IMG/VR virus record: IMGVR_UViG_3300029156_000007
Span: 1 to 40,597 of that record
Source: a virus
Lineage: Duplodnaviria > Caudoviricetes
Length of the DNA: 40,597 bases
Reading direction: 5' to 3' (one strand)
Position 1 is the first letter of the stretch; the number at the start of each line of letters is the position of its first letter. Made by a program: the position numbers and the translations under genes. This document shows, one piece after another, positions 35,463-37,769 of this stretch. The notes under the pieces are model-generated. The model made no database searches. It was given only the letters and a program-made list of their open reading frames with translations, and was not told the DNA's origin.

Positions 35463-36294
35463 TCAAGGGGGTTAGCGTACATCGACAGTTAATTACCTGA
35501 CCCGGAGGCCCTTCGGGATCGCCCGGATGCTGCAAGGGGCTGCCGCCAACCATGAAAGGTAGACTAATCTCTATCGGCTCGGCAAGTTCGGGATGCTGGC
35601 GCGTGTCATGGTCAGACCGTACACGACCATCAGCCGTTGAAAGCCATGCCTTCTTGTTGATCCCGTTCTCCATCCACGCCTCAAGCGTACCCGATTCAAA
35701 CGCGCCAACCACGACCGTATTCGTGATCCGGTCAACGCGGTACTCCCGGTAGCCCTCGAACAATTGATGCATTGACGCCTGCATTTCGTTCTGCGTGGCG
35801 TTCTCCGCTATCATGTCCGTGAGTAGCCGTATTACCTGCCGTTCCGTCGCCTGGTTAACCAGTTCACTACGCGTGACCTGCCGGGCGATGATATCCCACG
35901 CGATAGGGCGATCCGGTATGGTGTCCGATTCAAGGCCGATGCGAAGCAATCCGGCGAGTTTACCGTCTCGTATAATCTCCGTGATCTGCCCGGTTAACCG
36001 CCCGATGAACTCCCGCGCCCATTTGCGGAAGTCGAAGAAGTCGGCAAGGCTGAATGTCTTGGTAGATCGCTTTGCAATCTCGGCTATGATCTCGGCTTCC
36101 TGATCGTCAAAGAACTGCCGCACGATGGCCGCTACAGGCCCCCGGTGTACGTCCCGCATACGGTCAACGGCTAACCACTCGGCACGCCGCTGCTCGTCGT
36201 CCTGAGCCTTTAAGGATGCCCTATGGCGTCCCGCCCGTTCCAGCGTCCGTAACGCCCCTGCATACCCTGGATAGTGCTTTGCAGGAGCGGCTAA
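35452..36294 (-). CDS. MuF/SPP1 gp7-like minor head protein (frame open to the portal slippery site; first ATG at 36159)
   Basis: KKAWLSTADGRVRSDH…PFMVGG…HPGDP…INCRCTL. Confidence 0.85.
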   Translation of the reverse strand, partial: LAAPAKHYPGYAGALRTLERAGRHRASLKAQDDEQRRAEWLAVDRMRDVHRGPVAAIVRQFFDDQEAEIIAEIAKRSTKTFSLADFFDFRKWAREFIGRLTGQITEIIRDGKLAGLLRIGLESDTIPDRPIAWDIIARQVTRSELVNQATERQVIRLLTDMIAENATQNEMQASMHQLFEGYREYRVDRITNTVVVGAFESGTLEAWMENGINKKAWLSTADGRVRSDHDTRQHPELAEPIEISLPFMVGGSPLQHPGDPEGPPGQVINCRCTLTPLIDD

Positions 36295-37769
36295 AAACCC
36301 ACGAAAGGGGGTGCAAACACGGCATCAAGCTCCTCACCATCATCAAGGCGTTGGCGAATGATCGCCGCCTCGTATTCGCTCAGGTGGTCCGGGCTAAACT
36401 TAACGCTCCGGTCTTTCTTGGCGATCTTGCGACGCCAAGCCGTTATATCCTGCTCCTTGCCGGTGTCAGACTTCCATTCGGCTTCCACGGCTACCGGCTG
36501 CACCTTCAGCGCTTCAAGCTGCTCCTGGATGCTCTGAAGCAATACCTTCACATCCGCTGTCGATTCGTCTGCACCTTCCTCTGTAGCCGCCGCAAGCTGC
36601 CGGGGCTGTGCTTCCTCTTCTCTGGCATCTACGACGATTTCACGTGATCCCAGAGGCTCGTAGCCTAGCAATTCGCGCCCCTCATCCATCGTAAGGACGG
36701 GGCCACCTGTAATCTGTACCACCTTTTGCGCTTTGTCCAGTTCATATCGCTGTATCACTTCAAGCTGCTCCGGGTGGAACGTGAAGCGGTAGCCCATCTC
36801 GCTAAATAGCTGCCGGTTAAGCTGCCGCTGCAAGAATTTAGCCTGTGGTACGACCGTAAACACGTAGTAGTTGATGTGGTCAAGCTCCGCCGTAGCGAAG
36901 TTAGATGCATTACTCATCACGAGGCTGAACGGGATGCCAAGAGCGGCGCATACGGCTTCCCGCTGTTCGCTGGTTAAATCGCTATCAGAGAGATCGGATA
37001 AGCCCTCACCGATCACTTCCGGCTTTACCTTCGAGTTAAACACCTCATTCTTGCCGCCATTGAACCAGCCGGTGAGCATCTTATTCCACTTCGTCTTCAG
37101 GTTTTGAATCTGATCCGGGTGGATGTTCTCGCCGCCTTCAACCGTTAAGATCGTTGCCTTGATTGCGCCTTTGTCAAGGAAGTTAGCCAGGAAGCCATCC
37201 AGGGCGCGTAGCACCTGAACGTTCTTCTTTCCAGCCATTGCGCCCGATACACCGGGGCCGTTCTCGATGAACGGATCAAGGCCATGTATGGCTATCATGT
37301 CCTCAACATCGTACGTCTCCTGCCCGCTGTTCACGTTTCGCTTATACCCAACGACGCCCCGCGCTGGTGTCTTAATCGGTTCTATCTTCGTGGGGGATAG
37401 GTAGAACAGGTTCGATATGCCGCGCCCATCGTTCTCCTTAAGCGTGTATGCGCTGCCAACGGTGACAAGGGATGCTTCCCATTGATACAGAAGACCGGGC
37501 AGGTTGTCCAGCACCTTGAGCTGCTCCGGCAATTCCGGGGCGTCGCTATCCCATACAACAGTATCGCTGCCGGTTGCTGTAATGCTCCACGGCATCGACT
37601 GAATGGACTTCGCCCGCAGGTCCACACAGCGATGGAACCACCCCTGCTGATGGAATAGCGTCTGTATGGATACGTTGGTCTTCTTGTCCTCGCTGAACCA
37701 GCCGAGGATCGTATTCAGTGACGTGTTTTTAATGGGGCTTCGTGTGTCGAGAATTGCTACGCCTGCCAT
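36291..37769 (-). CDS. Portal protein
   Basis: RCVDLRAKSIQSMPW…GSAY…VCAALGIP…NFATA…TVVP…LTMDEGRELLGYEPL. Confidence 0.9.
   Translation of the reverse strand: MAGVAILDTRSPIKNTSLNTILGWFSEDKKTNVSIQTLFHQQGWFHRCVDLRAKSIQSMPWSITATGSDTVVWDSDAPELPEQLKVLDNLPGLLYQWEASLVTVGSAYTLKENDGRGISNLFYLSPTKIEPIKTPARGVVGYKRNVNSGQETYDVEDMIAIHGLDPFIENGPGVSGAMAGKKNVQVLRALDGFLANFLDKGAIKATILTVEGGENIHPDQIQNLKTKWNKMLTGWFNGGKNEVFNSKVKPEVIGEGLSDLSDSDLTSEQREAVCAALGIPFSLVMSNASNFATAELDHINYYVFTVVPQAKFLQRQLNRQLFSEMGYRFTFHPEQLEVIQRYELDKAQKVVQITGGPVLTMDEGRELLGYEPLGSREIVVDAREEEAQPRQLAAATEEGADESTADVKVLLQSIQEQLEALKVQPVAVEAEWKSDTGKEQDITAWRRKIAKKDRSVKFSPDHLSEYEAAIIRQRLDDGEELDAVFAPPFVGF

Follow-up and report, generated by a model that had tools for sequence, protein, structure and literature searches.

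The window, that is, the whole stretch of DNA that was analysed (40,597 nucleotides), is a 40.6-kb linear virus record in which an integrase is encoded. The genes of the terminase small and large subunits, portal, MuF, major capsid protein, neck and tail are located on the minus strand. The ORF right after the portal was assigned to MuF by this position and by its profile matches, namely, phrog_2468 (E=2.5e-28) and PF04233 (E=2e-4, under the Pfam cut-off); PF04233 is present in most close MuF homologues. On the portal-MuF fusion profile phrog_2662, the MuF ORF matches positions 494-707 and is collinear with the portal. No convincing match to a solved structure was obtained with the MuF profile, and the top match was a designed repeat protein. 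The major capsid ORF (34246-32123, minus strand, 707 aa) has a capsid domain that begins near residue 340-450, and its N-terminal part is probably a fused protease/scaffold. A Shine-Dalgarno (SD) sequence is missing from most late genes in the window, hinting at a low-SD host, e.g. Bacteroidota. The features of the portal-MuF junction, together with a separate site in the tail genes, are as follows.

37769-36291, minus strand: portal gene, 492 aa, C-terminus ...PPFVGF-stop (PF04860, E=2.7e-35; phrog_2662 positions 58-468)
36327-36325, minus strand: TGA closing the -1 frame upstream, whereby entry is confined to the last 11 portal codons
36309-36303, minus strand: further heptamer in register, C CCT TTC, at 13 nt from the stem; in several sister-lineage fusions this motif forms the boundary site
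36300-36294, minus strand: putative slippery site G GGT TTT in X XXY YYZ register, with the invariant core T TTT adjoining the stop (portal end ...G GGT TTT TAG)
36293-36291, minus strand: portal stop TAG, directly 3' of the putative slippery site
36294-36160, minus strand: 45-codon linker in the -1 frame without ATG, GTG or TTG, protein-coding by its similarity to the P0052 N-terminus and its conserved EWxA[VI][DE] motif
36289-36280, minus strand: 5' arm of stem 1, starting 4 nt past the heptamer (sequence, folding)
36271-36267, minus strand: loop pentamer TCCAG, shared unchanged with L003 and L008; candidate for pseudoknot stem 2
36262-36253, minus strand: 3' arm of stem 1 (sequence, folding)
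36243-36239, minus strand: CTGGA, candidate pairing partner of the loop pentamer by complementarity; its CTG is also a possible non-canonical start
36159-35452, minus strand: MuF (SPP1 gp7-like) ORF as the gene caller reads it, 235 aa from ATG 36159, of the short type without a C-terminal extension (profile matches; P0037)
29108-29102, minus strand: canonical -1 site T TTT TTC of the tail assembly chaperone (ORFs 29374-29075 and 29036-28698; -1 frame open for 136 codons; G-T-like motif)

The earlier note had proposed a -1 frameshift at this junction, and every element that it named was found in place. The -1 frame is closed by the upstream TGA and then runs through 45 start-free codons into the MuF ORF, as described there, and the expected products, a 492-aa portal and a fusion of about 772 aa, agree with the 492+280 = 772 aa that a -1 slip at the second heptamer, G GGT TTT, would give. 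In-frame X XXY YYZ heptamers are rare in this genome (only 10 in 19 minus-strand ORFs with 5905 codons in total), and the last 5 portal codons contain 2 of them. Stem 1 comprises 10 bp, including one G-U pair, and is G+C-rich. The hairpin has a predicted energy of -19.2 kcal/mol (z=-3.55; 0/200 shuffles equally stable in the 41-nt stem window) and is among the top 0.4% of the 761 windows of its own portal-MuF region; longer fold windows around it are weaker (z -1.25 to -2.14). Four unpaired nucleotides separate stem 1 from the candidate stem 2, and the 5-bp loop pairing by itself is not above chance (p=0.21).

A portal protein search returned 36 proteins, of which the 15 closest (40-94% identity) all have a PF-x-[GN]F or PY-x-GF tail with terminal Phe. 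Scans of viral, metagenome and genome contigs yielded at least 292 loci; the best 80 matches were used in the MuF scans of the viral and metagenome collections, and the counts are samples. The 292 listed loci include 118 split ones (53 distinct junctions), 78 in-frame fusions (70 distinct), 59 with MuF but no recognised portal, and 37 without MuF. Eleven of 37 pattern matches, having neither portal nor MuF, were set aside as chance. Portal-alignment scans of the metagenome and genome collections gave no relative. No cultured phage fell in the clade of the window, and the best portal matches among cultured phages were about 20-32% identical. In the record of Salinibacter phage 5_12, a MuF-like gene is annotated separately and is preceded by a small ORF.

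Among the matches listed, 21 distinct junctions have a portal with 33% identity or more to that of the window, and in all of them MuF lies in the -1 frame, open across the portal end; the -1 phase expected at homologous junctions is thus kept. These junctions form 7 clusters at 70-80% identity, and one of them is identical to the window. The remaining split junctions listed have portals that are at most 24% identical to the portal of the window or unalignable. Before de-duplication, 82 of the 84 listed loci with this portal tail type have MuF in -1. Both exceptions are one contig (L051 = L152), in which a G-run 53 nt past the stop is longer by one G and a second break comes later; we provisionally read this as a homopolymer assembly error. 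The -1 junction group is a single clade (SH-like 96; SH-aLRT 100 for nine representatives).

Several junctions on more distant portals were also recorded. L157 (2219) and L169 (1527) have G TAT TTT or G GAT TTT, one codon, the stop, a strong stem and MuF in -1; they carry the same signal on a distant portal with a long branch and were kept outside the 21, and their site is either convergent or deeply related. In L193 (1952), MuF is in -1 with no start for 107 nt, and the portal end has no canonical heptamer. Runs of 9-10 A stand shortly before the portal stop in L171, L179, L283, L392, L404 and L407, with MuF in -1 and mostly no close start; these A-run ends are probable independent shift sites. 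L283 comes from a Halanaerobiales MAG.

At the portal end, the final Phe codon is TTT and the preceding codon is GGT or GAT in 21/21 clade junctions among the matches listed. The base ahead of these codons is G in 13 junctions and a pyrimidine in 8, all 8 in one cluster, leaving the 5' G in 6/7 clusters. The share of TTT among Phe codons of the same genes ranges from 1/15 to 13/18, and the neighbouring Phe codon of the PPF motif alternates between TTC and TTT; the chance product for the synonymous T's, reckoned by hand with the 7 clusters taken as independent, is ~4e-7. The stop adjoins the putative slippery site in 20/21 junctions and follows one codon later in L010. In L011, L033, L036 and L041, a -1 TGA stands directly ahead of the last codon, so a shift there is possible only on T TTT. 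An in-frame motif of the X XXY YYZ or Z ZZN form is accordingly present. Two heptamers had been put forward for this end, and it is the second, G GGT TTT, that is conserved, with T TTT as its core. A slip at the first, C CCT TTC, would enter the same frame in this genome; it is not kept in L003, L008 and L012 and was rejected as a conserved site.

The available text of a survey of E. coli motifs (PMC4066793) describes C CCT TTC as efficient and U_UU.U as modestly shift-prone when a pseudoknot lies 5 nt downstream; G_GG.U_UU.U is absent from its high-efficiency motifs. By that ranking, the shift efficiency in the window may be low. We would expect a stop-assisted shift of low-to-moderate efficiency.

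A stem-loop begins 4-5 nt past the site in 14/14 representatives, close to the usual distance of about 5 nt, and its sequence differs between clusters. The stem is strong in 6/7 clusters. In 10/14 representatives, including the 2 distant ones (L157 and L169), it is in the top 0.4-4.3% of windows of its own gene; it is weak in L030, L032, L039 and L045, where 14-29% of windows are as stable. The covariation sought in the stem was found in one cluster of 8 sequences, in which two compensatory pairs occur and 100% of 104 cells are paired; these pairs are a single evolutionary event among related sequences and also alter -1 frame residues. The H-type pseudoknot suggested for this RNA fared unequally: stem 1 is supported, whereas the second stem is suggestive. 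Loop-to-3' pairing reaches 5-6 bp in 9/14 representatives, each with p 0.10-0.33, and 3-4 bp in four; the 5 pairs of candidate stem 2 are invariant in the alignable cluster and hence give no covariation signal. With loop pairing near chance and no covariation, the pseudoknot was not accepted as established. No SD-like stimulator, an optional element in bacteria, was detected upstream of the site, where the anti-SD duplex is no better than -2.2 kcal/mol in 14/14 representatives.

Over 38 aa, the start-free linker shares 47% identity with the called N-terminus of P0052 (pairwise E=8e-8); its length varies by whole codons between relatives, and MuF behind it is intact and conserved. By hhalign, the site of the window falls at the portal-to-linker passage of single-ORF relatives, a homologous position. 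The first ATG, GTG or TTG appears 32-83 codons past the site, and frames 0 and +1 are shut within 64 codons (10/10 representatives). The position of ATG 36159 is ATG in L003 and L011 and reads CTA, CGG, CGC and ATA in L008, L010, L021 and L131; the ATG is absent from 4/7 representatives with the EWxA[VI][DE] motif, which does not bear out MuF initiation at 36159 only. The -1 frame is therefore conserved as coding sequence without a common start, with L051/L152 as the one exception. Outgroup split junctions mostly carry their own start, overlapping or beside the portal stop. Most late genes have no SD, so its absence ahead of ATG 36159 carries no information, and this argument against the ATG was dropped. 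An additional free MuF initiated at ATG 36159 is possible.

Since the phase, the U-rich site at the stop and the downstream stem are kept and no MuF start is conserved, we consider it very probable, on the comparison of sequences, that a programmed -1 ribosomal frameshift at G GGT TTT gives both the 492-aa portal and the 772-aa portal-MuF fusion. A minority of ribosomes would enter the MuF frame at this heptamer, presumably while pausing at the stem and the stop codon. The tRNA-Phe would move from one UUU to the next, overlapping UUU and re-pair there, by itself while the stop occupies the A site or together with tRNA-Gly/Asp in a tandem slip; in the one lineage with Y GAT TTT, a slip of Phe alone is what the sequence would permit. 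Long and short subunits would then co-assemble in the portal ring, thereby placing few MuF domains, not twelve, inside the head. By analogy with SPP1 gp7, MuF may be sub-stoichiometric in each portal ring. The canonical tail-chaperone -1 site T TTT TTC of the same phage provides supporting context.

MuF might instead be made separately, from ATG 36159, from the near-cognate CTG 36243 or by re-initiation past the portal stop, with the junction motif serving another role. ATG is frequent at this position among homologues, and the CTG, codon 18 of the linker, is shared by the window, L003 and L008. Outgroups commonly have separate MuF genes, each with its own start, and the little SD use by the phage makes starts hard to exclude. 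However, besides the absence of the ATG described above, no candidate start is common to the clusters, and separate initiation leaves the fixed -1 phase, the fixed synonymous T's and the 4-5 nt spacer unexplained; we regard it as improbable. The same fusion would also arise without a ribosomal shift if RNA polymerase slipped on the T-run and added one U, and the invariant core is indeed a run of 4-5 T in which one extra U yields the same frame. Such a run is short for polymerase slippage, the stem has the spacing of a ribosomal site, and most clusters retain the 5' G of the heptamer, so that we give this route a very low probability.

The junction would need no programmed signal at all if it were a sequencing error or the decay of a formerly fused gene. 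In-frame fusion is the commonest form among MuF relatives (78/292 listed loci), and one contig (L051 = L152) does carry probable indel errors, but the break has the identical position in 21 listed junctions down to 33% identity, MuF remains intact and conserved, and independent contigs agree. The check for an indel that the proposal called for was made on contigs from two other studies (runs X3, X4 and X6), which cross the junction without an indel; the one pair of indels that they do have, at 36418/36422, is compensating. A contig attests presence only, and rare variants drop out of it. L002 agrees over 7304 nt and is possibly from the same source as the window. Error or decay is largely refuted and, in our estimate, extremely improbable. 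The programmed frameshift remains the preferred reading.

Sister lineages of the same portal family were collected in two more scans. With 36 duplicates, 21 cut portals and 15 loci lacking MuF left out, these contained 33 distinct fused ORFs and 52 split junctions, of which 36 are in +1, 14 in -1 and 2 in 0. In 24/33 apparent in-frame fusions (10/17 clusters), the boundary carries C CCT TTY or T TTT TTT, and the -1 frame leads to Tyr-Pro-stop within 2-16 codons (L297, L305-L314, L318, L319, L321, L322, L325, L331-L333, L342, L345, L351, L430, L433). As a control, none of 56 PF/FF dipeptides of the portal body leads to Tyr-Pro-stop, and 10 show the heptamer form. The Tyr-Pro tail is the natural C-terminus of split portals in the same lineages. 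No strong hairpin was found 3' of the boundary sites of the sister fusions, and 6/33 have no site. The pattern suggests that these sister fusions are likely frameshift genes of opposite polarity, in which a -1 shift out of MuF would yield the short portal. In-frame portal-MuF fusions had been cited beforehand as known; such ORFs do exist, but many of the closest ones look like frameshift genes of this opposite kind. In the -1 frame of the window itself, a sense codon comes after His-Tyr-Pro, which may be a relic of the sister-lineage tail.

A further class comprises Tyr-Pro-stop portals with MuF in +1 (L295, L304, L315, L316, L344, L348, L353, L366, L368, L373, L443 and others). TTT C stands shortly before the stop in 24/25 Tyr-Pro-ending portals with a +1-overlapping MuF (background 7%). 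A start codon lies in the overlap in 23/25, all but L316 and L366, which leaves the class ambiguous between a +1 shift and separate initiation. On the tree, the fusion and +1 split types interleave, and the clade of the window is nested among them (support 97). Many 50%-cluster representatives of the portal family (P0056-P0201) end PPF-x-x-F-like or Tyr-Pro, suggesting that both arrangements are far commoner than the DNA loci obtained. In the 70 distant in-frame fusions among the matches listed, linker heptamers are not enriched (13 in 8040 codons vs 51 in 25666), so a sub-stoichiometric ratio would not be universal. We see about an even chance that one portal family makes a short portal and a portal-MuF protein from a single gene, with the polarity switched repeatedly: -1 into MuF in the clade of the window, -1 out to Tyr-Pro-stop in sister lineages, and perhaps a +1 entry into MuF at CCC TTT C. 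Mixed rings with a MuF number set by recoding would then be general in these phages, though not annotated.

If the frameshift is real, the portal ring is a mixed oligomer, and a short RNA signal sets the MuF copy number, a question that dates back to SPP1 gp7. Mutating the signal could leave no long subunits, a few or only long ones, making MuF function directly testable. Gene callers would truncate MuF in the clade, with the first start 32-83 codons late, and miss the short portal in the sister lineages. Many MuF proteins carry effector domains into the host, according to the accessible text of PMC5576092 and PMC5512222, and recoding could therefore set a cargo dose, with the MuF of the window being of the short type.

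No frameshift in a portal gene was found in the literature searched, outside which lay subscription journals and the PRFect data tables; the earlier note likewise knew of no described case of a portal-MuF frameshift. The word "portal" is absent from the first 300,000 of 449,034 characters of PMC5009743, from the PRFect text and from one 3-kb PRFect supplement. The available part of the PRFect paper (PMC10885494) speculates broadly that genes fused in one place could rely on frameshifting elsewhere and names VIP2 and MuF-like genes, not portal. In Microbacterium phages EA3/EA5/EA8 and EB, portal-MuF is described as one gene, with no frameshift in the consulted portion of PMC7302621. Such single-ORF fusions, phrog_2662 included, have the same domain order as the product proposed here and differ in that no frameshift is described for them.

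Like the -1 shift of the tail chaperones (lambda G-T; SPP1 17.5/17.5* with a putative UUUUUUC, as the available text of PMC6316719 gives it), the proposed shift would use a U-rich heptamer close to where a late gene ends and give short and C-terminally extended products at a set ratio. It differs from the G/GT chaperone shift in that the gene is a portal, the extension is MuF and the site adjoins the stop with a stem 3' of it, and its products would be virion components; moreover, the site does not lie in a gene pair upstream of the tape measure gene, and the chaperone site of the phage is separate. T7 10A/10B and the capsid extensions of Listeria and Lactobacillus phages are frameshift-extended virion proteins. 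As in these, a shift at or near the stop would extend some of an oligomer's subunits by a domain; whereas their domains face outward on capsid or tail, the portal would gain a head-internal MuF domain. The SPP1 tail tube proteins gp17.1/17.1* arise by a +1 shift at CCCUAA in a 3:1 ratio, by the part of PMC6316719 available.

For pea enation mosaic virus, the consulted text of PMC5009743 gives G_GAU_UUU with a stop one codon later that is required for shifting. The heptamer and stop geometry are the same as in L010 and L169, but that site belongs to a plant RNA virus, eukaryotic ribosomes and a replicase product. In SPP1, gp7 (MuF) binds the gp6 portal at 1-2 copies per capsid and supports infection, and only about 25% of the virions without gp7 are infectious, according to the available text of PMC6316719 and PMC5576092, which agrees with the low-copy portal binding cited in the earlier note. 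The arrangement in the window is like that of SPP1 gp6-gp7 in that muf directly follows portal; unlike the predicted fusion, gp7 is a separate protein bound non-covalently.
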